Virus genome (UHGV): UHGV-0390448
DNA length: 64,000 nucleotides
Direction: 5' to 3' (one strand)
Origin: a virus
Both the position numbers and the translations under genes were made by a program. Shown here one piece after another: positions 24,552 through 59,297 of the stretch. The notes beneath the pieces were generated by a model. That model was not told the DNA's origin. It made no database searches and saw only the letters and a program-made list of their open reading frames with translations. Every line of letters begins with the position of its first letter. Position 1 is the first letter of the stretch.

Positions 24552-24575
24552 AAAGCCCCATATGGGGCTTTTCTT
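24552..24575. terminator. Bidirectional terminator between the ParG-like gene and dmt
   Basis: aaaagcccca-ta-tggggctttt: stem flanked by A-tract on one side and T-tract on the other. Confidence 0.7.
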
Positions 24576-26988
24576 AATTAAGCGTGGCTATAATGTCGTT
24601 AGCTATCATTCGCGTTGATGCTTTACAGGATACAGAGCGACGGGATGGCATAGGATACACCTTGAAGCCATTGCCAACGTAAAGTTCGCGAATGTTAGGC
24701 GCTCCACTGTTTGTTATCACAATTTTCGCCCCGCGTCTGTGAGCATCTACCAGCAGCGACACCAGCCGTTGTTGATCTTCAAACCTAAAGCTATGCCCTG
24801 AGTAATTTGTAAATCCGGTAGTGTCGGGCAATGGTTCATAGGGGGGATCGCAGAAAATCACATCATCATTCCCGGCAGCCTCAATTACACCAGCAAAATC
24901 GCCGGACACAAATTCCGAATACTTTGAAATATCGTCAGCCAGGAACGCCTCCATTTCCGCGAGAGGGAAGTAGGGAGATTTCTGCTTTCCATATCCGACG
25001 TTGAACTCTCCTTTACGGTTATAGCGAGTGACGCCATTAAAACAATGACGATTGAGATACAGGAACGCCGCTGCATGGTGAAGAGAATCATAAGCACCAT
25101 TGTTGAATGCATTGCGAACATTCAAAAATGCATCAGCAGAGTTGTAATCCTGAAAATAACGATATGCCAGTGTGATAAGAGAATACCCTTCACGCTGCAA
25201 TGTCTGATAGAAGTTAATCAGGTCACCGTTAATATCATTAAGCAGGTTGTGGCGAAAACCTGCATTCGTAAATACGGAACCGCCACCAACGAATGGTTCT
25301 ATTAACCGCTTGCCGTGTGGCAGATGCTCAAGCACTGTAGGCAACCCTGAGAATTTACCGCCTACCCATTTGAATATTGGGCGCTCATATTCATCCGGAG
25401 TCCGGAGTTTTCTAGTGTAGGTAATGGTATTTATTGTTTTTTGCTGTTTATCCGCCACGGTCGCAAGAATGCGACACCCAATCCATTGCATAACAGGAAC
25501 TGCCATGCTGTTGCCGATCGCTTTGTAACGCGGTCCGTCAGCTGCAAGCATCGCGGCCTCTTCTTCGCTTAAATCTGGATAGTGATTGCGCAGATATGCC
25601 AGTTCATCTGAATTAACTTTTTTACGCTTTTCCGTAGGGATCAACGTATGCCCATCAGGAAAACCTTGAAGTCTCTCACATTCGACAGGGGTAAGACGGC
25701 GGACAGCTACTTCTTCGTTTCTTACTTCATAGCAAACAGCAGTTGGATTTTGAGCCATTAGAGATGGTGAAGTATTCTTAGTTGCTGCATGTTGTGTACC
25801 ACTCATACGCTCAGGAAAAGCCAATGTAACAAGATGCCCATGGCTTTCTTGCTCACGCGCCCGCAATGTACCATGCCCTTCTGACCAAAAACCTGCTCCA
25901 GTGCTGCTAAAAACGGCAAGGTCAGTGGCATCTTTAAAGTCTCTTGCCTTTACTGTCGATGCGGTTTCATCGTCAATATATTCCCCAAATGCCGCCATCC
26001 TGAAACCGTTTACGGCTTTCGTCGATTTCATATCGGGGGACATGCCAGCGTGTAGGCATGGATTTAGGCTTTCGCCACTGATTGCAGCGCCATTTGCAGT
26101 AATGGCGGAAGCGATTTCCTTCTTTTTTCGGCTCGGCGCAATATTCCGGCGCACGCCTTCGAACTCAAAAAGTACCGTTGCGGGATCGAGGTCTGTTCGA
26201 GCACTTGCGACAACAAACACGCGTCGGCGTCGTTGTGCCACTCCGAAGTATTGGGCATCAAGGATTCTCCAGGCCACTTTTCGCTGCGGTCCATAAATAC
26301 AACCACACTGCGGCCACTTTGGAGCATGGCTACCGGTTTTGGCATCCCACCGCCAGAACGCGTTACTTTTTCGTGATTCAGGTCGATCACCAGGTTCGAA
26401 TGGCGCATTTTCTCCAGCCAATCCGGCAAGGAAACATCCGAATGCGTTATCTGCTGATGACAGGACTCCTGGGACATTTTCCCATACGATGACGGCTGGT
26501 TTGAGAAAGGACTCGGCCCGTTTGTCGTCAATTGCATTTGCAAGCTCCACATATTTTAAAGTTAGCGCGCCGCGCTCATCATCAAGCCCACCACGCAAGC
26601 CCGCGATACTGAATGCCTGACAAGGGGTTCCTCCGACGAGAACATCCGGGGCTTCAATTTTTCCAGCCCGGATCTTCTTAGCAAGTTTTGTCATGTCGCC
26701 AAGGTTGGTGACATGAGGCCAGTGGTGCGCAAGAACGGCAGACGGAAAAGGCTCGATTTCAGCAAACCAAGCCGGACGCATACCCAACGGTTCCCAGGCA
26801 ATGCTTGCGGCTTCAATTCCACTGCAAACCGAACCATATCGAAGATTAATGCTCTGCTTCACCGCCAATGGCCTCCACCAGCGAGCTAAACATCGCGGAT
26901 AATTCGCTTGTGAACAGAATGAAGTCAGCATCAAACCGCTGGGCAACATCTTCACGGTCGATGTCATCGTTCTGGTCATAGAGATCAT
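24574..26988 (-). CDS. dmt: Bifunctional DNA methyltransferase, N-terminal C5-cytosine (Dcm-like) fused to C-terminal N6-adenine (Dam-like) domain
   Basis: N-terminal part has CSGIEAASIAW (motif I-like) and GGTPCQAFSIAG (PCQ motif IV); C-terminal part has FVGGGSVF and DPPY. The true start is probably internal, since the ORF as drawn overlaps the upstream gene by about 140 nt. Confidence 0.8.
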   Translation of the reverse strand: MISMTRTMTSTVKMLPSGLMLTSFCSQANYPRCLARWWRPLAVKQSINLRYGSVCSGIEAASIAWEPLGMRPAWFAEIEPFPSAVLAHHWPHVTNLGDMTKLAKKIRAGKIEAPDVLVGGTPCQAFSIAGLRGGLDDERGALTLKYVELANAIDDKRAESFLKPAVIVWENVPGVLSSADNAFGCFLAGLAGENAPFEPGDRPESRKSNAFWRWDAKTGSHAPKWPQCGCIYGPQRKVAWRILDAQYFGVAQRRRRVFVVASARTDLDPATVLFEFEGVRRNIAPSRKKKEIASAITANGAAISGESLNPCLHAGMSPDMKSTKAVNGFRMAAFGEYIDDETASTVKARDFKDATDLAVFSSTGAGFWSEGHGTLRAREQESHGHLVTLAFPERMSGTQHAATKNTSPSLMAQNPTAVCYEVRNEEVAVRRLTPVECERLQGFPDGHTLIPTEKRKKVNSDELAYLRNHYPDLSEEEAAMLAADGPRYKAIGNSMAVPVMQWIGCRILATVADKQQKTINTITYTRKLRTPDEYERPIFKWVGGKFSGLPTVLEHLPHGKRLIEPFVGGGSVFTNAGFRHNLLNDINGDLINFYQTLQREGYSLITLAYRYFQDYNSADAFLNVRNAFNNGAYDSLHHAAAFLYLNRHCFNGVTRYNRKGEFNVGYGKQKSPYFPLAEMEAFLADDISKYSEFVSGDFAGVIEAAGNDDVIFCDPPYEPLPDTTGFTNYSGHSFRFEDQQRLVSLLVDAHRRGAKIVITNSGAPNIRELYVGNGFKVYPMPSRRSVSCKASTRMIANDIIATLN

Positions 26989-30236: not shown

Positions 30237-31105
30237 TCGATCACTCCGTTTTGAGTGGTATCAAAGTTCCTGGCCGGGATGCAGTAATAAAGGGAACCAA
30301 CGTGTTGTGTTCCGTAGCTGAAGATTCGATGCACGTACCACCAGCGGCGGGCGAGGCCATTCGCCATTTCTTCGTTCCATTCCAGGATTGAACCAACAGG
30401 TACGTTGTTTGCAGCAATACGCAGGATTAGCACTTCATCAGCAAGACCATCCTGTTCTCCATCGGCATCAATGGCATGAAACGAATCCCTTCCGTCCGGG
30501 TTATCCAGGACGTATACGATTTCCGGTTCCAGATAGGTAAGCTCACGCTGGTTGTTGTCCAGTTGCGTGAAAGACTCTTCACCTGTTTCATCGTTTACGA
30601 CGCCATAGGTGCCATCAGCCGGGCGATATAAAAGCGCCTCGAATGCGTCAGGGCTTGATTCAATAATGAGCATCCAATCGGCGCGGATCTGGTCGTTGAA
30701 CGCTTTGTGTCCGTTATATCGGGTTTTAAGCTGCTGGTTTGGTTGTCTGTTAGCGAGCGATGCCGGTAGGGGGGCGATGTCAGGTTCAATCACTTCCGTA
30801 ACAGAGTCACCAGCATTATCAGGCCAATTATCATGGCGGCTATCTGCTTCGGTGGCAGCGTGTTCTTCCAGAATACTGAATGGCCCTGTACTGACCTTCC
30901 CATTTTCCGTTGTGCTTCCTTCATTCGCTTCAACCGTCGTTGTCTCTTCTCTCTGCGTGCTGTCATGTTCTGTTCCCTTTCTCATCAGGCTTGCATCATC
31001 AGCAAACCATTCATCAAAACGGCCCATAAGCGTCCTCAAAGGTCGATTTATCAGGTATCGAGGGGCATTGTCAGGAGATTGTGATTTCAATTCATATCCC
31101 AGCAT
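30233..31105 (-). CDS. Hypothetical structural protein
   Basis: 290-aa ORF, first gene of the minus-strand module ending at the rdgC-like/dmt pair. Confidence 0.4.
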   Translation of the reverse strand: MLGYELKSQSPDNAPRYLINRPLRTLMGRFDEWFADDASLMRKGTEHDSTQREETTTVEANEGSTTENGKVSTGPFSILEEHAATEADSRHDNWPDNAGDSVTEVIEPDIAPLPASLANRQPNQQLKTRYNGHKAFNDQIRADWMLIIESSPDAFEALLYRPADGTYGVVNDETGEESFTQLDNNQRELTYLEPEIVYVLDNPDGRDSFHAIDADGEQDGLADEVLILRIAANNVPVGSILEWNEEMANGLARRWWYVHRIFSYGTQHVGSLYYCIPARNFDTTQNGVIE

Positions 31106-33482: not shown

Positions 33483-33764
33483 TTATGCGTGGGAAAATAA
33501 TGGACGGATGTTTGGGCGAGCGGTTTGCGAAGCAACCCAAAGCTCATACTGGGATTGCATACCGGTCCACATTTCGGCACTGGTTCCAAGAGCGGACTCC
33601 AGACGAAGTGCCATATCAGCAGAAATACCTGTTTTTTCGTTCAGAATTCGGGAAAGTGCCGTGCGAGTAATGCCTAATGCAGCAGCTGCGTCTGTGACTG
33701 ACATGTCTCCCAAATATTCACGAAGAACCGCGCCTGGATGCGCGGGATTATGCATACGACTCAT
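33483..33764 (-). CDS. HigA/VapI-type HTH antitoxin-like protein (no cognate HigB adjacent)
   Basis: 93 aa with [13 protein letters not shown] and [38 protein letters not shown], the classical HigA signature. Confidence 0.65.
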
Positions 33765-34060
33765 ATGTGGAAAGCAACCCGTTTACCGGTTGGCAATTCA
33801 ACGTCCAGACTCAACTTTCCACCCATAGCCTCAACGTAACGTTTAAGCGTTGCTACTTTCAAGTCATTGCCTCGTTGTTCAAGTTTTGTGATGGCTGGTT
33901 GACTAATTCCCATCGCATCGGCAACTGTTTTTTGTGATAACTGAAGCTCCTCTCTCAACATCTGCAATCCGACTTCCAGAATCATTTCATCAGCCTGCTC
34001 TTTGATACGAGCTTGGCTTTCAGGGGATTGCGCAGCAATAACTTCTCTTAGAGTTCTCAT
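33761..34060 (-). CDS. XRE-family HTH antitoxin
   Basis: 99 aa with HTH ([21 protein letters not shown]), start overlapping the toxin stop. Confidence 0.6.
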
Positions 34061-34407
34061 TATTTTTTCTCAAGTTCTGCAAGATGGTTGGAAAATTCGT
34101 CGTCTGCAATCCGTATCATTCTTTCGTAGAACTTTTTATCGTTACTCTTATCTCCGGCGCACAGGATTATGGCTTGCCTTACCGGATCAAATGCGAAGAA
34201 TGCTCTGATAGGGCGACCAGCGTACTGAATCCGTAACTCCTTCATGTTTTTATGGCGTGAGCCTTTAACTGTGTCGGCATATGGCCTTGATAATGAAGGG
34301 CCATATGTTTCCAGATTGATCAGGTCAACCAGGATTTTTTCTTTTAATGCAGGTTCCTGTTCCTGGAACCATTCATCAAAAATTTTTCCAAAATAAATTT
34401 GCCACAT
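34060..34407 (-). CDS. RelE/ParE-superfamily toxin (Gp49/DUF891-like)
   Basis: 115 aa; toxin-first order with overlapping HTH antitoxin; sequence pattern of the phage Gp49-like killer family. Confidence 0.55.
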   Translation of the reverse strand: MWQIYFGKIFDEWFQEQEPALKEKILVDLINLETYGPSLSRPYADTVKGSRHKNMKELRIQYAGRPIRAFFAFDPVRQAIILCAGDKSNDKKFYERMIRIADDEFSNHLAELEKK

Positions 34408-34442
34408 AGTTATTCAAAATCCTTTTTAATAAACTACATGTT

Positions 34443-34479
34443 ATAAACTACAGGTTATATCATATAACCTGTAGTTTAT
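34443..34479. promoter_or_regulatory. Perfect 37-bp palindrome upstream of the toxin gene (probable autoregulatory operator)
   Basis: ataaactacaggttatat-c-atataacctgtagtttat, 36 nt upstream of the toxin start codon. Confidence 0.6.
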
Positions 34480-34512
34480 ATTTTCAAGGCCATTTTTTAT
34501 TCGATTTAGCAT

Positions 34513-36842: not shown

Positions 36843-37769
36843 TTAACTAATAATCCAGTCGGTTGCTGCTACATCTTCTGGCTGCAAATCAATCGCACAG
36901 ATCTTACCGTCGCGAATGGTGCGCCAGTTTTTCCGTGAGCCTCTTTCGGGCCATACCCAGACACTTTCAGGCCAGGATGCTCGACGGCATACGGTTGCAT
37001 ACCCTGTTTTAATCTTCTCTCTGGCGGTATGCAACGACAGGTTTGCCTTTGGACTTTCAGGCACAGGATGGTGAATGGCCTGAAATAGCCCCATCCTGGG
37101 ATGATACCAGCGTTTGTTACGTGGTTCTGCCTCCGACATAACCTGCTTAAAGGCTTTCCGGAAGGGGGCCAGGGCCACAATGGAACGTCGCGCAAGCAAA
37201 CCGTCGGGAGTTAAAAACTCATGCGTATCAGTGGGTATCCGGTAAGCGTTGACCAGGTTACGGCATTTGGCTTCAGTCAGGCCACATTTCGCCGCCAACT
37301 GGCGGTAGCCAATGTAGCCTTCCGGAATATTGCCTTTCTTGATCTGCTCGACGGTTTCAGCGACTTTGGACACTTGTGCCGATACTTCGGCTACCTGGGC
37401 ATTAACAGCGTTGATCCGGCGTTCATGCTCAAGATGCATTTGCGCCATTTCAGCCAGGATTTCGGCTTTTGATTTTAACGGTCCCCTGGCATTCTCCAGT
37501 TCGCGCCAGCGGTCCACCAGCCGGGCGGTGAATTCCGGAGAGAGCTGTGCGACGACAATGATACTATCGCGCTTGCCTTGCTCGCCTTCGAAGACGTAAT
37601 AGCTCGCCGGGCGGCCTGCGGTGGGCTTTTCCTCAATTTGAGGAAAAGATATTACGCCCCGTTCCGCCAGGTGTTCAATGGTGCGTTTAACGTTATCAGG
37701 GCGCTTACCTACCAGTTCCGCGATCTCAATGCTGGTCATTGTCGCTTTTTGAGAGATGGACAGATTCAT
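36843..37769 (-). CDS. Rha-family antirepressor-like protein
   Basis: N-terminus MTSIEIAELVGKRPDNVKRTIEHL matches the phage Rha regulatory domain; position downstream of the icd-like ORF and c4-like RNA mirrors the P1 immI operon. Confidence 0.6.
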   Translation of the reverse strand: MNLSISQKATMTSIEIAELVGKRPDNVKRTIEHLAERGVISFPQIEEKPTAGRPASYYVFEGEQGKRDSIIVVAQLSPEFTARLVDRWRELENARGPLKSKAEILAEMAQMHLEHERRINAVNAQVAEVSAQVSKVAETVEQIKKGNIPEGYIGYRQLAAKCGLTEAKCRNLVNAYRIPTDTHEFLTPDGLLARRSIVALAPFRKAFKQVMSEAEPRNKRWYHPRMGLFQAIHHPVPESPKANLSLHTAREKIKTGYATVCRRASWPESVWVWPERGSRKNWRTIRDGKICAIDLQPEDVAATDWIIS

Positions 37770-37984
37770 CAGTGCACCTCCACGCAGTTCATCGGCAGAT
37801 TCCAGTAATTGAGGATCTCCATCGCATCAAGAGTGAAGCGAGCAGCAAAAATGCAGGGTTCTTCGGGAAGGTATGAGCGCGCTTCTGCTTCGGTAGCTGC
37901 CATGACGCAGATGTAGAGGTGTTTTTGGCAGGAATAGAAACGCCAGATAAATTCAGAATGAGTTGGGGTAGGGATAGTAGCCAT
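37769..37984 (-). CDS. Icd-like small ORF
   Basis: 71-aa ORF with a perfect SD (AAGGAGG), stop overlapping the antirepressor start; positional analogy to P1 icd. Confidence 0.4.
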   Translation of the reverse strand: MATIPTPTHSEFIWRFYSCQKHLYICVMAATEAEARSYLPEEPCIFAARFTLDAMEILNYWNLPMNCVEVH

Positions 37985-38165
37985 ATTGGCAGCCTCCTTT
38001 GACTAAGTTAAGGAGCTACCGCGTGAGGTTCCAATCTCAATGGCGGTAGCACTGACTGGGTTGGAACTACCGGCGTCAAAGGGAACCGGCCTGCCTTTCG
38101 GCAGCCCAGCCAGCACTACCATTGATCTCTGAGCTAAACGCTAAGTATGGCTGTGCGATGGCATG

Positions 38166-38235
38166 ACACAAAAAAAGACGCTTTCGGCGTCTGTGTCGCC
38201 TTTGACATTATCCGGGGTTCCAATCCCGGCACCCG
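38166..38235 (-). ncRNA. Candidate c4-like antisense RNA (stem-loop with AUUGGAAC loop plus intrinsic terminator)
   Basis: Minus-strand hairpin CCGGG-AUUGGAAC-CCCGG (38212-38229) followed by terminator AGACGCCGAAAGCGUCU + U7 (38169-38192); complementary GUUCCAA site at 38061-38067 on the same strand upstream of the icd-like SD. Confidence 0.4.
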
Positions 38236-38783
38236 TTTTTCTAAGGTGCCGTAGAAATATACCCCACGATAATGCCTGGGCGCAACAGTCTGTATTTTTA
38301 TGCTTTGGAGGATTTCTTCCGGGCTTGTTTGCAAGCGTAGGCCATTGCTTTAGCTTTCACTTCATCCAGCTTTCCGGTGATCACTTCTTTTCCGAGAGTG
38401 ACAAACCAGTCATAGCAACCGCCAGTGATGTTCTGGATTTGAAAGTTGAGGTAGCGAACGGTCATTTTGACACCCCCAGCGCGAGTAAAGAATGCAGATT
38501 ATCGCGTGAGTGGCGGACAATGAGTGATGGGGAAAGACAGTAGTTGTTCATAGTGTAGTGACTCCTTGCTTTCGGAGCCGCCATCGACTGTTCCACGGTC
38601 TGGTGGCGGCGCAATAAAGGCTGGAACACCGTGAGTCAACGGGGGCTTTTCAGCCACCTATATTGCACCGCCATTGGTATGGCGGCGGCAATCATACGAA
38701 AAACCAAACGGTTTGTCTCAAAAAGTTGACCGGTGTACCAATCGGTTGTGAATGTACAACGGTGAATTTCACAATTCAACTTA

Positions 38784-38800
38784 AAATGTTAGAAAACTAA
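38784..38800. promoter_or_regulatory. Operator-like site at the head of the immI-like operon
   Basis: aaatgttagaaaactaa matches the TGTTAGAAAAYTAA family. Confidence 0.55.
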
Positions 38801-39414
38801 TTTATTAATTCAGTCACCATCTGATACAACGTCATTTCATCAGCATTGTGCCGCCTGAAATCTGCTTTGCCGCCTATTTTTCCATCAGCATGAACAGGGA
38901 CCAACCAGGGGTATTGCTCGCGTATCTCTGCTGGCGCTGCGTGTTGATGGTGCCATTTACACAAAGGGAGAACGTATTTATGCGCGTTCTCTGCCGTTCT
39001 CCCGAAGATGTGGTGCAGGGATACCACAGGGCTATGCTGTCCGTGCATATGGCAGGCAATGCAGGGGAGGGCACCGATGGCAGTTTGTATCCGGCGCTCA
39101 TCTGCTGTGAGTGTTCTGCCTTTCAGGCCGCGTGACGCGCGAGTTTTTTTGACAGGAGCAGAAGCGGCCTTCTCTTTTCTTCGCTGTTCATATTGCTTCG
39201 CTTTTTCAATTTTCTTTTGCCGATATTCAGGCGATGCGGCTTTTTCTCGCGCACGCTGCTGCTGGCGTTGAGCTTGCTGAAGACGTTTTGCCCTTTGTTC
39301 CTCCCGCCATTTCGGATCAGCCAGTTTTTGCAGGGCTTTTTGTGTCTGTTTCTCCCAATAGCTTTGCTTCATAGAAATACCCGGTTTGTCTACATCGCCG
39401 CTATGGTTGATCAA
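38797..39414 (-). CDS. ref: Ref-like HNH endonuclease
   Basis: 205 aa; K/R/Q-rich disordered N-terminal half, C-terminal Cys/His cluster (CIACHMHG ... SLHHIFG ... PLCKWHH); perfect palindromic operator directly upstream. Confidence 0.5.
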   Translation of the reverse strand: MINHSGDVDKPGISMKQSYWEKQTQKALQKLADPKWREEQRAKRLQQAQRQQQRAREKAASPEYRQKKIEKAKQYEQRRKEKAASAPVKKTRASRGLKGRTLTADERRIQTAIGALPCIACHMHGQHSPVVSLHHIFGRTAENAHKYVLPLCKWHHQHAAPAEIREQYPWLVPVHADGKIGGKADFRRHNADEMTLYQMVTELIN

Positions 39415-39415
39415 A

Positions 39416-39449
39416 TGTGTTAGAAAATCAAAATTGATTTTCTAACACA
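39416..39449. promoter_or_regulatory. Perfect 34-bp palindromic double operator
   Basis: tgtgttagaaaatcaa-aa-ttgattttctaacaca, 2 nt upstream of the ref-like start and about 170 nt upstream of the divergent plus-strand genes. Confidence 0.7.
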
Positions 39450-39617
39450 AAATGAAGATACTTTTTTTCATACGCTATATCAGGAGGTCATGATGCTTGT
39501 CGCAATAAGTGCAATCCACCAGCAATCCGGTACAGAAATTGGGTTGCTATATGCCCTGTTTTTCACTGTCCTGGCGTTGTTTGAGCTGGGCATTGAACTC
39601 TTTGCTCTCATCAACTT

Positions 39618-40256
39618 TTGCGTAACGTTCCTGGGGAAACTTTGATGGCTATACGCATTATGAAAATTTACATCGCGGGTCCGATGACTGGTTATCCCGA
39701 CTACAACCGCACAGCGTTTTTTTCGAAAGCAAAAGAGCTGATGGAGGCAGGGCATATTGTTCTGAATCCGGCGCTGTTACCTGCTGGCCTCTGCCAGAGC
39801 GAATATATGGATATTTGCCTTGCTATGGTGCGTTCGGCTAATGCGGTCTATTTGCTCAAGGGGTGGGAGGAATCAGTTGGCGCTCGTGCAGAGCACGAGC
39901 TGGCTCAAAAGCTGGGGCTGAATGTAATTTATGAGTCACCAACCAACATTGAATGCCAGGTTGCTCCGCATATTTACCGGGAACTGGTCAATGCACTGCG
40001 TGATATCGCTGCTGTATATCACGGCACAGAACAGCTTCGTGAGCGTTTAGCCCATACCATTTCCTATTACCTGTCTGCATCTCATGAGCACAAGCTCCGT
40101 CAGAAGGTAATGATCAAATTTATCATGAGGTTATCGAAATCCCTGGCAAACGCCGATCCAAAGAATCCATTACCGAAAGAGGCAATGAATTACCTGAAGT
40201 CCTGCAACATTGTTTCTGAAGATGGCGTTCTTTTGGTTAGAAGGAGTTCTGCGTGA
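39618..40256 (+). CDS. DUF4406-like (nucleoside 2-deoxyribosyltransferase fold) protein with C-terminal extension
   Basis: Contains MKIYIAGPMTGYPDYNRTAFF...VLNPA, the signature I associate with DUF4406; start may be at an internal Met near 39660. Confidence 0.45.
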   Translation: MRNVPGETLMAIRIMKIYIAGPMTGYPDYNRTAFFSKAKELMEAGHIVLNPALLPAGLCQSEYMDICLAMVRSANAVYLLKGWEESVGARAEHELAQKLGLNVIYESPTNIECQVAPHIYRELVNALRDIAAVYHGTEQLRERLAHTISYYLSASHEHKLRQKVMIKFIMRLSKSLANADPKNPLPKEAMNYLKSCNIVSEDGVLLVRRSSA

Positions 40257-40570
40257 GCTGGCGGGGATGGGGAAGGGCAGAAATCATGATACTCCGCCAG
40301 TGCGCCGGGACTATGACAGTCGAGGGTATTGGGAGACTGATCGGGCGTACCGGTGGTGCTGTCAGGACTAAAGCGCGGCAATTGCGGATCAGCATGATTC
40401 TGAAAGGTGACTTTCACCAGTCAGCCAAATACCGGCAGAGCGATATAGAGCTGGCGCGGCAGCTTCATCAGTGTGGCGTTCCCCGCCGTGAGATCGCAGA
40501 AAAACTCGAAATGCCCCTGGGCATGATTAATCAGTACGTTTATTTCGAAAGGAGAGTGCATGAAGTCTGA
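40253..40570 (+). CDS. Hypothetical small DNA-binding-like protein
   Basis: 105-aa ORF, overlapping neighbours. Confidence 0.4.
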   Translation: MSWRGWGRAEIMILRQCAGTMTVEGIGRLIGRTGGAVRTKARQLRISMILKGDFHQSAKYRQSDIELARQLHQCGVPRREIAEKLEMPLGMINQYVYFERRVHEV

Positions 40571-43542: not shown

Positions 43543-44225
43543 CCCAGGTGCTGCATGAAGTGAATTTATATAGCCGTATTGATGGTTCAGGCTACAGAAA
43601 CATATGGGTTGTTGGTGATTTGCACGGTTGCTACACCCTACTTATGAATGAACTCCATCGTGTGGATTTTGACCCTACACAGGATTTACTGATATCGGTT
43701 GGCGACCTTATCGATCGCGGCACCGAAAATGTTGAATGCCTGGAGCTATTGCAGATGCCCTGGTTTCGGTCGGTTATGGGAAACCACGAGCGATTAATGA
43801 TCGATGCGTTAAGTCCCGCAGGCAACGTGAATAACTGGCTAATGAATGGTGGTCAATGGTTCTTCATGCTGGACGCTGATCGGGAAATATTAGCCAGGGC
43901 GCTGGTGGAGCTGGTAAGACGTTTGCCCTATATCATTGAGTTGAACACCGGGCATGAAACTATCGTTATAGCCCATGCCGACTATCCTGATAACGAATAC
44001 CAGTTTGGTAAACCTGTTAGCGATCTCAATGTTACCTGGCGGCGTGAGCGATTTTATGACGCGGTTGATGGTGTTGGTGGAATGATCACTGGCGCAGATA
44101 GCTTTATTTTCGGGCATACGCCAGTAAACAGCCCGAAATCTTTCTGGAACCAGCACTACATAGACACTGGCGCGGTTTTTTGCGGAAATCTGACGCTAAA
44201 GCAGGTGAAGGGAGGGCAGTTGTAA
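43539..44225 (+). CDS. Ser/Thr protein phosphatase (lambda-phosphatase-like metallophosphoesterase)
   Basis: GDLHGC, GDLIDRG and GNHE motifs in the canonical order. Confidence 0.8.
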
Positions 44226-57869: not shown

Positions 57870-57900
57870 ACTGTCTAAAAAGATTGTTAGAAAATTAATT
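57870..57900. promoter_or_regulatory. Tandem operator-like sites between the recombinase gene and the downstream operon
   Basis: actgtctaaaaag + attgttagaaaattaatt; the second is a full match to the TGTTAGAAAAYTAA family. Confidence 0.55.
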
Positions 57901-58928
57901 CAGGAATCCATCAGGCGACTATTTGCACCAACGGATGCCCCGCTACGGCGCAAATATCGCATAAGTGTTTCGGGCTTTTTCCATGTGCCTTCCTGCATGA
58001 TCTCGACCATTGACACCTGTTTCTCAGCCATATCAATTGCCGCACCAACACGCGCACTATGACCTGTCCACGTCCGGTATCTTCCTTTGTTCGGCGTGGC
58101 ATCTCGCTTATTCAGCAATCCCCAGGCATCGCTGAATATTTTCTCCATCGCAGGAGCAGTAAGAGGCGTTGTCGTGATTCTGGCTTTATTACTGCGGTGT
58201 ATTGGCGGGAATAGCACCGCGTCCGGATGTTCACGAAGTCCGGACACCTCCAGCCAGTCGTTTAGCACGGCGGTAGTGCAACGAGAAAGCACCTTATCAA
58301 GTCCGGCGGCGGTCGTGATGGTCTTCGTGTGTGAAATATGCAGCGTTACAGTGTCACCTGTTTGGTCCAGATCTCCGACACGGATGCGCGAGATTTCTGA
58401 CATACGCATCAGGGTATTGTATGCCACGAAGAGAAACGCCCGATTGCGCAGGTCCACCAGCCGCTCGGAACGGGACAGCAATACGTCGAGCAATTTCAGA
58501 TCATCCCACCGCAACGGTATAGCCTGGCCTGTACGCTCGCCTTTTTCCGTTGCCGCTTCGCGCCGGATGCGCCGCATGGCCAGAGATACACTTTTATCGT
58601 CTGACAGCGGCGGTAGGCCGCATTGCGAAAGCAGCATGTTAAGCATGGCATAGTGCTTATCAATGGTGGTCGAAGCCAGATCGGCTTCATGCAACTGGAG
58701 AAGATACTCGCGGGCCATTTCCGGCGTAATCGGGAACCAGGGGCGCTGGCGCGAATTACACCACCGCGCCCAGGAATGAAAGACCAGACGGAGATCACGA
58801 AGTGTATTTGGGGCATAAGCTCCCTGGTCGTTCATGAACTGCATAAAGTTTTTTGCAGCTTCCTGGTATTCGGTGCCAATATCGCGCAGAAAACCGCCAG
58901 AACCGCCGGAGATAACTAGTTCACCCAT
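57900..58928 (-). CDS. Cre-family tyrosine recombinase (Dre-like)
   Basis: 342 aa, collinear with P1 Cre (WFP..PE..R.YLL.L, VSL.MRRIR, IRNLAF..AYNTL.R..EI.RIRV.D, W.GHSARVGAA.DMA, EIMQ.G.W, .Y.R.); about 45-50 percent identity by eye; catalytic R/H/R/W/Y positions conserved. Confidence 0.9.
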   Translation of the reverse strand: MGELVISGGSGGFLRDIGTEYQEAAKNFMQFMNDQGAYAPNTLRDLRLVFHSWARWCNSRQRPWFPITPEMAREYLLQLHEADLASTTIDKHYAMLNMLLSQCGLPPLSDDKSVSLAMRRIRREAATEKGERTGQAIPLRWDDLKLLDVLLSRSERLVDLRNRAFLFVAYNTLMRMSEISRIRVGDLDQTGDTVTLHISHTKTITTAAGLDKVLSRCTTAVLNDWLEVSGLREHPDAVLFPPIHRSNKARITTTPLTAPAMEKIFSDAWGLLNKRDATPNKGRYRTWTGHSARVGAAIDMAEKQVSMVEIMQEGTWKKPETLMRYLRRSGASVGANSRLMDS

Positions 58929-59079: not shown

Positions 59080-59113
59080 CTAACTTTAAATAATGCCAAT
59101 TATTTAAAGTTAG
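59080..59113. other. lox-type recombination site (rox-like): 13-bp inverted arms around an 8-bp spacer
   Basis: cTAACTTTAAATA-ATGCCAAT-TATTTAAAGTTAg; arms are perfect inverted repeats and share TAACTT...ATA with loxP arms; the 32-bp core equals the rox sequence as I recall it; 150 bp upstream of the recombinase gene. Confidence 0.85.
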
Positions 59114-59194: not shown

Positions 59195-59297
59195 ACATTT
59201 TCTAATAGGAACAATCAAAAAAAAGCGGTTTTATCCTTTACTCACCTTGTTATTCAGCATAAATTTGTCACAGGACTTTTATGTTAGAAAACTAAAT
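59195..59297. promoter_or_regulatory. Two operator-like sites upstream of the 59310 ORF
   Basis: acattttctaatagg (59195-59209, inverted) and ttatgttagaaaactaaat (59279-59297). Confidence 0.55.

Follow-up and report, generated by a model that had tools for sequence, protein, structure and literature searches.

The ref locus of a D6-like plasmid prophage: a Ref orthologue and a putative C1-type double operator shared with a divergent operon

The ref gene and its genomic neighbourhood

The locus described here lies in a 64,000-nucleotide stretch of viral DNA (UHGV virus genome UHGV-0390448), which was analysed as a whole and is called the window throughout. It consists of a ref gene on the minus strand, an inverted repeat upstream of this gene and a run of small accessory genes that starts on the other side of the repeat and is transcribed rightward (Table 1). 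Judged by its nucleotide similarity to known elements, the window represents an E. coli plasmid prophage that resembles D6 and belongs to the P1 family. The region 38000-40300 aligns over its full length with Escherichia phage D6 (NC_050154) at 89.6% nucleotide identity and with ~90-kb non-mobilizable E. coli plasmids at up to 98% identity, with 360 plasmid records matching. In D6 and in the matching plasmids the gene at 38797..39372 is annotated as Ref, the label of the D6 counterpart being 'Ref-like RecA filament endonuclease (similar to P1 gene ref)'. The Ref gene is already known: phage D6 and over 100 RefSeq plasmids carry it as an annotated gene, and there is nothing unusual about the locus in this common type of D6-like phage-plasmid.

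The order of genes in this part of D6 is an icd-like and ant operon, small ORFs, the Ref-like gene and divergent small accessory genes beginning with orf88 and a gene for a DUF4406 protein, and the layout around ref in the window is the same. To the left of ref lies an immI-like operon composed of small ORFs, an isrK-like RNA, a C4 antisense RNA, icd and ant (Rfam). To the right, the divergent array of early genes that had been described in an earlier note on this DNA was recovered as a run of plus-strand genes extending from the ATG at 39490, which is preceded by a GGAGG ribosome-binding site, to about position 44225. Downstream of the first gene of this rightward operon, a DUF4406 gene was identified (E=4.9e-35).

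Table 1. Coordinates of the genes, protein segments, half-sites and candidate promoters discussed in the text
Feature	Position	Strand	Basis or remark
Terminator-like hairpin followed by a T-run, downstream of ref	38728..38743	-	consensus scan alone
Single (monovalent) half-site AATGTTAGAAAACTAA	38785..38800	+	overlaps the ref stop codon, upstream of the immI-like operon; position weight matrix score 21 bits
ref gene, predicted Ref-family RecA-dependent HNH (His-Me finger) nuclease, 191 aa + stop codon	38797..39372	-	PF16786, 3PLW, identity to P1 and D6 Ref
Globular nuclease core, codons 86-191	38800..39117	-	C104, C107, C138, WHHQH (H141, H142, H144), H161
Basic low-complexity N-terminal segment, codons 1-85	39118..39372	-	counterpart of the N-terminal 76 residues of P1 Ref by composition
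Conserved block TATGGTTGATC between operator and ref	39402..39412	.	holds the candidate -10 and GATC (39409-39412)
Candidate ref promoter: -35 TTGATT (39431..39426), 17-nt spacer, -10 AACCAT (39408..39403)	39403..39431	-	7/12 consensus
Putative bivalent operator: two inverted 16-nt half-sites TGTGTTAGAAAATCAA with AA between	39416..39449	.	perfect arms, conserved core, enriched half-site
Candidate rightward promoter: -35 TTGATT (39434-39439), 17-nt spacer, -10 GATACT (39457-39462)	39434..39462	+	8/12 consensus
First rightward gene, 51-aa hydrophobic protein, D6 orf88 counterpart	39490..39645	+	GGAGG 5 nt upstream of ATG; D6 annotates orf88 and orf89 here
Single half-site	18994	-	between the capsid (MCP) gene start and an orf52-like gene
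Paired half-sites	27764 / 27782	pair	13 nt upstream of the RdgC/hrdC-like ATG
Single half-site	35398	-	20 nt upstream of the simB-like ATG, in the mat-simB gap
Paired half-sites	39416 / 39434	pair	ref palindrome
Paired half-sites	44256 / 44274	pair	41 nt upstream of the DUF968/pdcB-like ATG
Single half-site	57883	+	directly after dre, ahead of the next leftward operon
Single half-site	59280-59295	+	15 nt upstream of the c1 ATG; weaker copy at 59196-59211
c1, presumed repressor reading the half-sites, 345 aa	59310..60347	+	80% identical to D6 C1
Paired half-sites	63722 / 63740	pair	76 nt upstream of lpa (Pfam BPP1_LPA, E=4e-50)

The Ref protein

The minus-strand ORF 38797..39414 would encode 205 aa if it started at the TTG codon. 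The true start of ref is probably better placed at the ATG at 39372, resulting in a product of 191 aa; the TTG at 39414 was rejected as start because D6 closes the upstream frame with a stop codon and the public protein begins at ATG 39372. This 191-aa product is matched residue for residue by the public entry 'MULTISPECIES: Ref family recombination enhancement nuclease', which is present on about 704 contigs. In the variant found in the window no clear Shine-Dalgarno sequence was seen at the ref start codon. A further point against the TTG is that the stretch separating the inverted repeat from the ATG shows little conservation, which is what a leader would be expected to show.

The protein had been proposed to be a Ref-like HNH endonuclease with the two-part architecture of P1 Ref, and both the similarity to Ref and the two-part build held when it was compared with P1 Ref. 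The Pfam family PF16786 (RecA_dep_nuc) is matched with E=6.2e-36 and 123.1 bits, the cut-off being 26.9, and the match extends over positions 2-102 of the 103 in the profile and residues 103-204 of the 205-aa ORF, and the sole solved relative, P1 Ref (PDB 3PLW), is found with E=3.9e-52 (phmmer). In a four-way alignment the product shares 54% of its residues with P1 Ref, 92% with D6 Ref and 74% with a less closely related homologue from a plasmid, the N-terminal half being much less conserved with respect to P1 Ref than the core. Residues 1-85 contain 27 K/R and 9 D/E but neither Cys nor His, which resembles the first 76 residues of P1 Ref with 25 K/R and 9 D/E, and residues 86-191 contain 3 Cys and 11 His. 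By this alignment the ref product is an orthologue of P1 Ref.

Within the core, C104, C107, C138, H141, H142 and H161, the latter being the histidine of the VPVHADG motif, are invariant in the Ref proteins of the window, P1, D6 and pHX138, and H144, the last histidine of WHHQH, is replaced by Tyr in D6 Ref. The Cys/His cluster of the core (CxxC, the third Cys and WHHQH) presumably corresponds to the metal-binding residues in the 3PLW structure. The window residues H142 and H161 are equivalent to H134 and H153 of P1 Ref and are kept in all four Ref sequences. For P1 Ref it was shown that H134 and H153 are the residues mutated in inactive variants (H134/153A; PMC4713147, PMC4330346) and that the N-terminal 76 residues are disordered and required for DNA binding (PMC4330346). 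Moreover, P1 Ref increases ciprofloxacin killing in lysogens and also inhibits cell division, chiefly via its C-terminal domain (PMC4713147).

This latter activity raises the alternative that the homologue has another main role, either as cell-division inhibitor or as plain non-specific HNH nuclease without RecA dependence. The identity to P1 Ref of just 54%, the weaker conservation of the N-terminal half and the Tyr in place of the last histidine of WHHQH in D6 Ref are compatible with such a shift in function. However, the core is highly conserved including both residues altered in the inactive P1 variant and the N-terminal charge pattern is kept, and a different main role is regarded as highly improbable. 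RecA-dependent nuclease activity is the preferred assignment, both the RecA dependence and the nuclease activity being predicted from the experiments performed on P1 Ref, the 54% identity and the conserved catalytic residues.

The inverted repeat upstream of ref

The arms of the repeat, 39416-39431 and 39434-39449, comprise 16 nt each, are 100% complementary and enclose a non-symmetric AA spacer. Its earlier description as a perfect 34-bp palindrome is correct for the arms but not for the full 34-mer, which is built as 16+2+16 and is symmetric at 32 of 34 positions. In 30 first-order Markov simulations of the window, in which gaps of up to 12 nt were allowed, no perfect arm exceeded 13 nt, and for this reason the repeat is not attributed to chance. 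The earlier note had ranked it as the most perfect palindrome of the window, which is incorrect, since the repeat at 34442-34480 is longer, having 19-nt perfect arms with 1 nt between them; the ref palindrome is the best instance of its own motif only.

As single-stranded DNA the repeat is predicted to fold with -14.3 kcal/mol (z=-6.1 compared to shuffles). This would agree with a structural role, i.e., a DNA cruciform or an RNA hairpin acting as a processing or termination signal or as an origin-like element. Against termination, the flanking genes diverge so that no terminator is needed between them, and the stem is A+T-rich and lacks a T-run. Further evidence on this alternative comes from the distribution of the half-site in the window and from the related elements, and it is taken up again with the latter. 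The reading preferred here, as judged from sequence comparisons, is that the repeat most likely offers two binding sites to the C1 repressor encoded by the phage itself.

A half-site motif dispersed across the window

A single arm of the repeat, TGTGTTAGAAAATCAA, occurs with up to three mismatches ten times in the window at an expectation of 0.74. Using a slightly degenerate pattern of this half-site, 14 matches were obtained compared to 3.6 expected, a number that none of 100 shuffles equalled, and the core TTAGAAAAT repeats about 14 times. A position weight matrix scan combined with inspection of the flanking ORFs placed all strong half-sites in intergenic regions beside operon starts (Table 1). 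At four of these places the half-site is doubled as an inverted pair, always with 2 nt in between, and elsewhere it is single. The single site at 38785-38800, at the end of ref, is also present in D6 and pHX138.

These observations support the proposal that the repeat serves as an operator: the half-site is dispersed at operon starts including the one upstream of c1, the ref/orf88 gap shows a phylogenetic footprint, and ref of P1 is controlled by C1. The perfect two-fold symmetry of the ref repeat is also typical of sites bound by dimeric helix-turn-helix repressors, and the repeat might instead be the symmetric site of another dimeric regulator, e.g., the product of the ORF at 40253-40570 in the rightward operon, acting as local autoregulator of the divergent promoters. 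This ORF gives a weak Sigma70_r4-like HTH match (E=0.0015, under the Pfam cut-off), and a 'DNA-binding protein' is annotated near its counterpart in RefSeq relatives. However, most other copies of the motif are single half-sites, for which a symmetric dimer has no need, and one of them lies directly upstream of c1, which makes such a regulator unlikely. Moreover, the set of genes adjacent to the motif parallels the C1 regulon of P1, and the left arm of the common D6-type allele has changed at 6 of its 16 positions and keeps the half-site core, both of which speak against a symmetric site read by another dimer.

Candidate promoters in the ref/orf88 gap

A consensus promoter scan of 38500-39800 yielded nothing in the ref/orf88 gap that agreed with the sigma-70 consensus at 9/12 or more positions. 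The claim that the ref promoter overlaps the palindrome can thus be kept in a weaker form: matches of 7/12 and 8/12 are present and are positionally conserved, but nothing reaches 9/12. The inner end of each palindrome arm reads TTGATT and would provide the -35 hexamer of a candidate promoter pointing outward across the arm, and the -10 candidate of the leftward promoter falls within the conserved block between operator and ref. Among relatives, the leftward geometry TTGAWT-17-AATCAT was found in 5 of 6, the arm in pS143-4 not being located by the script, and the rightward promoter is represented at the same place by TTGAWT-16-TAATAT or TTGAWT-16-TAGTCT; A2 and T6 of the -10 hexamer are kept in every case. 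The promoter locations in this gap are predicted from these sequence matches and their positions.

A general rule according to which the inner end of the half-site forms the -35 hexamer was considered and rejected, as it fits the ref locus and its relatives and fails at the other operator sites. The placement of operators with respect to promoters thus varies, as it does in P1.

Conservation of the operator among related elements

Both D6 and pHX138 carry the half-site motif at orthologous places, and D6 has further copies outside the counterpart of the window, near repL, the second icd-ant region and pmgS. In an alignment of the ref/orf88 gap from seven elements the core TTAGAnAnTCAAAATTGAnTTTCTAAC is invariant and the flanks have diverged. 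Similarly, the adjacent block TATGRTTGATC is fixed save for one position (R) in seven relatives within a diverged leader. Between window-type and D6-type plasmids, identity in the ref/orf88 intergenic region is about 73% and in its flanks about 90%. In the common D6-type allele, no more than 10 of 16 positions agree between the left, ref-proximal arm and its partner, again with the half-site core preserved. Perfect symmetry thus characterises the window-type and pHX138-type alleles and not the family.

The element pHX138.33gt_1 encodes a C1 that is 66.6% identical to C1 of the window, and its ref palindrome is perfect again, both arms reading GAAATTCAA. The arms share a change from A to T at position 12 of the motif, by which the pairing is preserved. 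At this position T is found at 10 of 17 sites in pHX138, at none of 14 in the window and at 6 of 22 in D6, one search pattern having been used for all three, and in pHX138 the change is spread genome-wide and includes single sites. As this shift at multiple sites parallels the divergence of the repressor, the motif would be read by a diffusible protein. The drift of the motif together with the divergence of C1 suggests that C1 is this protein and is the best indirect link to C1 obtained.

The same data bear on the structural alternative. The paired change in the pHX138 arms would also fit selection for a hairpin. However, the change at single sites throughout the genome points to a diffusible reader, single half-sites cannot form hairpins at all, and the majority D6-type allele has lost 6 of the 16 base pairs. 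Considering this imperfect arm, the divergent genes and the single sites, the hairpin or terminator reading was judged unlikely, and a purely structural function of the repeat in general is given very little weight.

C1 as presumed binder and a model for the locus

In a direct pairwise BLASTP comparison, C1 of the window is collinear with P1 C1, 21% of 241 aligned residues being identical (E=1e-7); public databases list it as 'phage repressor protein'. A tblastn search of phage records with an E-value of 1e-5 returned D6 alone and no record of the P1 group, and the protein gave no match to Pfam families and no structural relative in the PDB.

In the model proposed here, the basic N-terminal segment of Ref would bind DNA, and the C-terminal HNH/His-Me finger core would cut solely DNA that is bound by RecA, i.e., filaments and D-loops, a function established by experiment for P1 Ref. 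A C1-type repressor would recognise the asymmetric 16-nt half-site, alone or paired, at roughly a dozen genomic positions. At the ref locus each half-site would cover the -35 hexamer and the spacer of its own weak promoter, the two promoters being arranged back-to-back, and two bound repressors would be expected to shut both. In the lysogen, C1 bound to both half-sites would silence ref to the left and the roughly 5-kb accessory early operon to the right. Upon inactivation of C1, ref and the rightward operon would be transcribed as part of the lytic programme, in line with measurements on P1 ref. The overall reading, namely the ref locus of a D6-like prophage encoding a Ref orthologue and carrying a C1-type bivalent operator that would control both directions, is assigned a probability of about 0.8.

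The more specific proposal that the half-site with its core TTAGAAAAT is the D6-type C1 operator, with a 34-bp bivalent geometry unlike that of P1 and with a sequence that co-evolves with C1, is put forward tentatively and at somewhat below even odds. What may be new in this analysis is the operator motif of the D6 type, now stated explicitly, together with the way it drifts alongside C1, and only that; the operators of D6 may have been described already (Gilcrease and Casjens 2018; Sauer and McDermott 2004).

The practical value of these results is limited, as the locus is routine, and what is added is modest, namely a working operator motif and a regulon map for the D6-type C1 repressor. D6-like phage-plasmids are widespread in clinical Enterobacteriaceae. 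In the window ref is probably held off by C1 via a high-quality double operator, which helps to predict when ref is expressed. If the joint drift of motif and repressor is true, it would mean that immunity specificities have diverged stepwise in nature within an E. coli/Salmonella phage-plasmid family that is very common. Window-type and D6-type elements would then be characterised by A at position 12 of the motif, and pHX138-type elements by T at 10 of 17 sites, both ref arms among them.

Comparison with P1 and D6

The C1 repressor of P1 recognises an asymmetric 17-bp consensus present at 22 sites (PMC8546580). The annotation of P1 lists 'monovalent' and 'bivalent' C1 operators before c1, lpa, repL, ref, mat and other genes, among them a monovalent Oref within the promoter P2ref, and P1 ref is induced upon inactivation of C1 (PMC4713147). 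The ref genes of P1 and of the window encode proteins of the same family with the same two-part build and conserved catalytic histidines, and in both a repressor operator, putative in the case of the window, overlaps the promoter. Furthermore, a second operator lies over the ref stop codon, i.e., Omat in P1 and the site at 38785-38800 in the window. In contrast, Oref of P1 comprises one 17-bp site only, ATTGCTCTAATTGATTG, which is located within the P2ref spacer, whereas the window carries paired 16-nt half-sites of other sequence. The leader of P1 ref has a terminator-like hairpin just before the ATG, unlike the leader in the window, where none was seen; attenuator control of P1 ref is mentioned by Windle et al. 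1988 in their title, which is cited in PMC4713147. P1 ref is neighboured by cre, c8 and mat, whereas ref of the window is located between an immI-like and an accessory early operon and has a promoter region in common with the divergent operon.

With respect to the operators in general, P1 likewise uses an asymmetric site both singly and as inverted pair at the promoters of lytic and regulatory genes, c1 and lpa among them (PMC8546580). The geometry differs, since Oc1ab of P1 consists of two 17-mers that overlap by 6 bp and span 28 bp, and the pair in the window of two 16-mers separated by a 2-bp gap and spanning 34 bp. Comparison of the half-site or its complement with the P1 consensus ATTGCTCTAATAAATTT by eye showed that at most about half of the positions match, and a likeness between the two was rejected, because about 7-10 of 17 positions matched in either orientation and the polarity was conflicting. 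The repressors are only 21% identical. The system of the window would work like the P1 C1 system without sharing its immunity specificity.

D6 itself, with orf87 (YP_009914764), is likewise among the closest known systems, together with the many D6-like plasmid prophages of E. coli, Salmonella and Shigella, which have the orthologous locus with the same neighbours. D6 shares with the window a Ref protein of 92% identity, an identical right half-site and the motif at orthologous places. D6-type elements differ from the window in the left arm, of which 10 of 16 positions match, and in the ref leader, which contains a better ribosome-binding site, and D6 C1 is 80% identical to C1 of the window.

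Operator motif and the ref/orf88 intergenic region

In plasmid pHX138.33gt_1 (pHX138; NZ_CP091837.1), a more diverged relative of the element, position 12 of the 16-nt operator half-site is a T in 10 of 17 sites, compared to 0 of 14 for the window; for Escherichia phage D6 (NC_050154) the count is 6 of 22. This change (e.g., at 30579-30612) is also found in both arms of the pHX138 ref palindrome, the paired half-sites upstream of the Ref nuclease gene. The sequences suggest that the operator motif and its presumed binder, the C1 repressor, are co-evolving; the C1 identity of pHX138 is 66.6%.

The region between ref and the divergent orf88 (39373-39489) is a mosaic: it shares approximately 73% identity with the D6-type allele, against approximately 90% for the flanks, and the part close to the start codon of ref is similar to the allele of pHX138. 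A stronger ribosome-binding site for ref (AAGAGG) is present in the D6-type allele than in the window. Moreover, the block TATGRTTGATC (39402-39412) in the interval between operator and ref is invariant in all seven relatives aligned and overlaps the candidate -10 element of ref. Its GATC (Dam) site lies within the palindromic TTGATCAA, and methylation may have a regulatory role at this site. In the Ref protein of D6 (locus L001, 6794-7372) the WHHQH motif ends in Tyr; its final His is kept in the Ref proteins of the window, P1 and pHX138.

Further palindromic and recombination sites

A perfect palindrome of 39 bp (34442-34480; 19-nt arms, 1-nt centre) exceeds the ref palindrome in length. Approximately 35 nt separate it from the Gp49/HigB-like toxin gene (PF05973, E=1e-21) that it precedes, and it probably serves as operator for a toxin-antitoxin operon. 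The two small ORFs following the toxin gene appear helix-turn-helix-like by eye. Furthermore, window 59081-59112, TAACTTTAAATAATGCCAATTATTTAAAGTTA, placed between the dre-like gene and c1, has exactly the sequence that PMC4777119 prints for the wild-type rox site, the target of the Dre recombinase.

Features in the neighborhood of the sites discussed
Feature	Coordinates	Strand	Remark
804-aa ORF (single)	24574..26988	-	downstream of RdgC/hrdC-like gene
ORFs next to palindrome 34442-34480	34060..34407, 33761..34060, 33483..33764	- (all)	
Rha/Ant-like gene	36843..37769		C4 and isrK-like RNAs upstream
icd-like gene	37769..37984		C4 and isrK-like RNAs upstream
C4 antisense RNA	38039-38126	-	Rfam, 77 bits; just downstream of ref
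isrK-like Hfq-binding RNA	38171-38249	-	Rfam, 62.7 bits; just downstream of ref
Promoter-like site	38719..38691		9/12 match; past half-site 38785-38800
Terminator-like hairpin	38728-38743		past half-site 38785-38800
dre-like tyrosine recombinase gene	57900..58928	-	

Comparison with P1 and its relatives

The C4 and isrK-like RNAs together with the icd-like and Rha/Ant-like genes constitute an immI-type anti-repressor module. A single operator half-site (38785-38800) overlaps the ref stop codon, as does the Omat operator in P1; however, it precedes the immI-like operon in the window and mat in P1. Two separate genes for methyltransferases are annotated in D6 where the window has the single 804-aa ORF, and pHX138 carries one Dam-family gene of 2289 nt in a P1 dmt-like arrangement.
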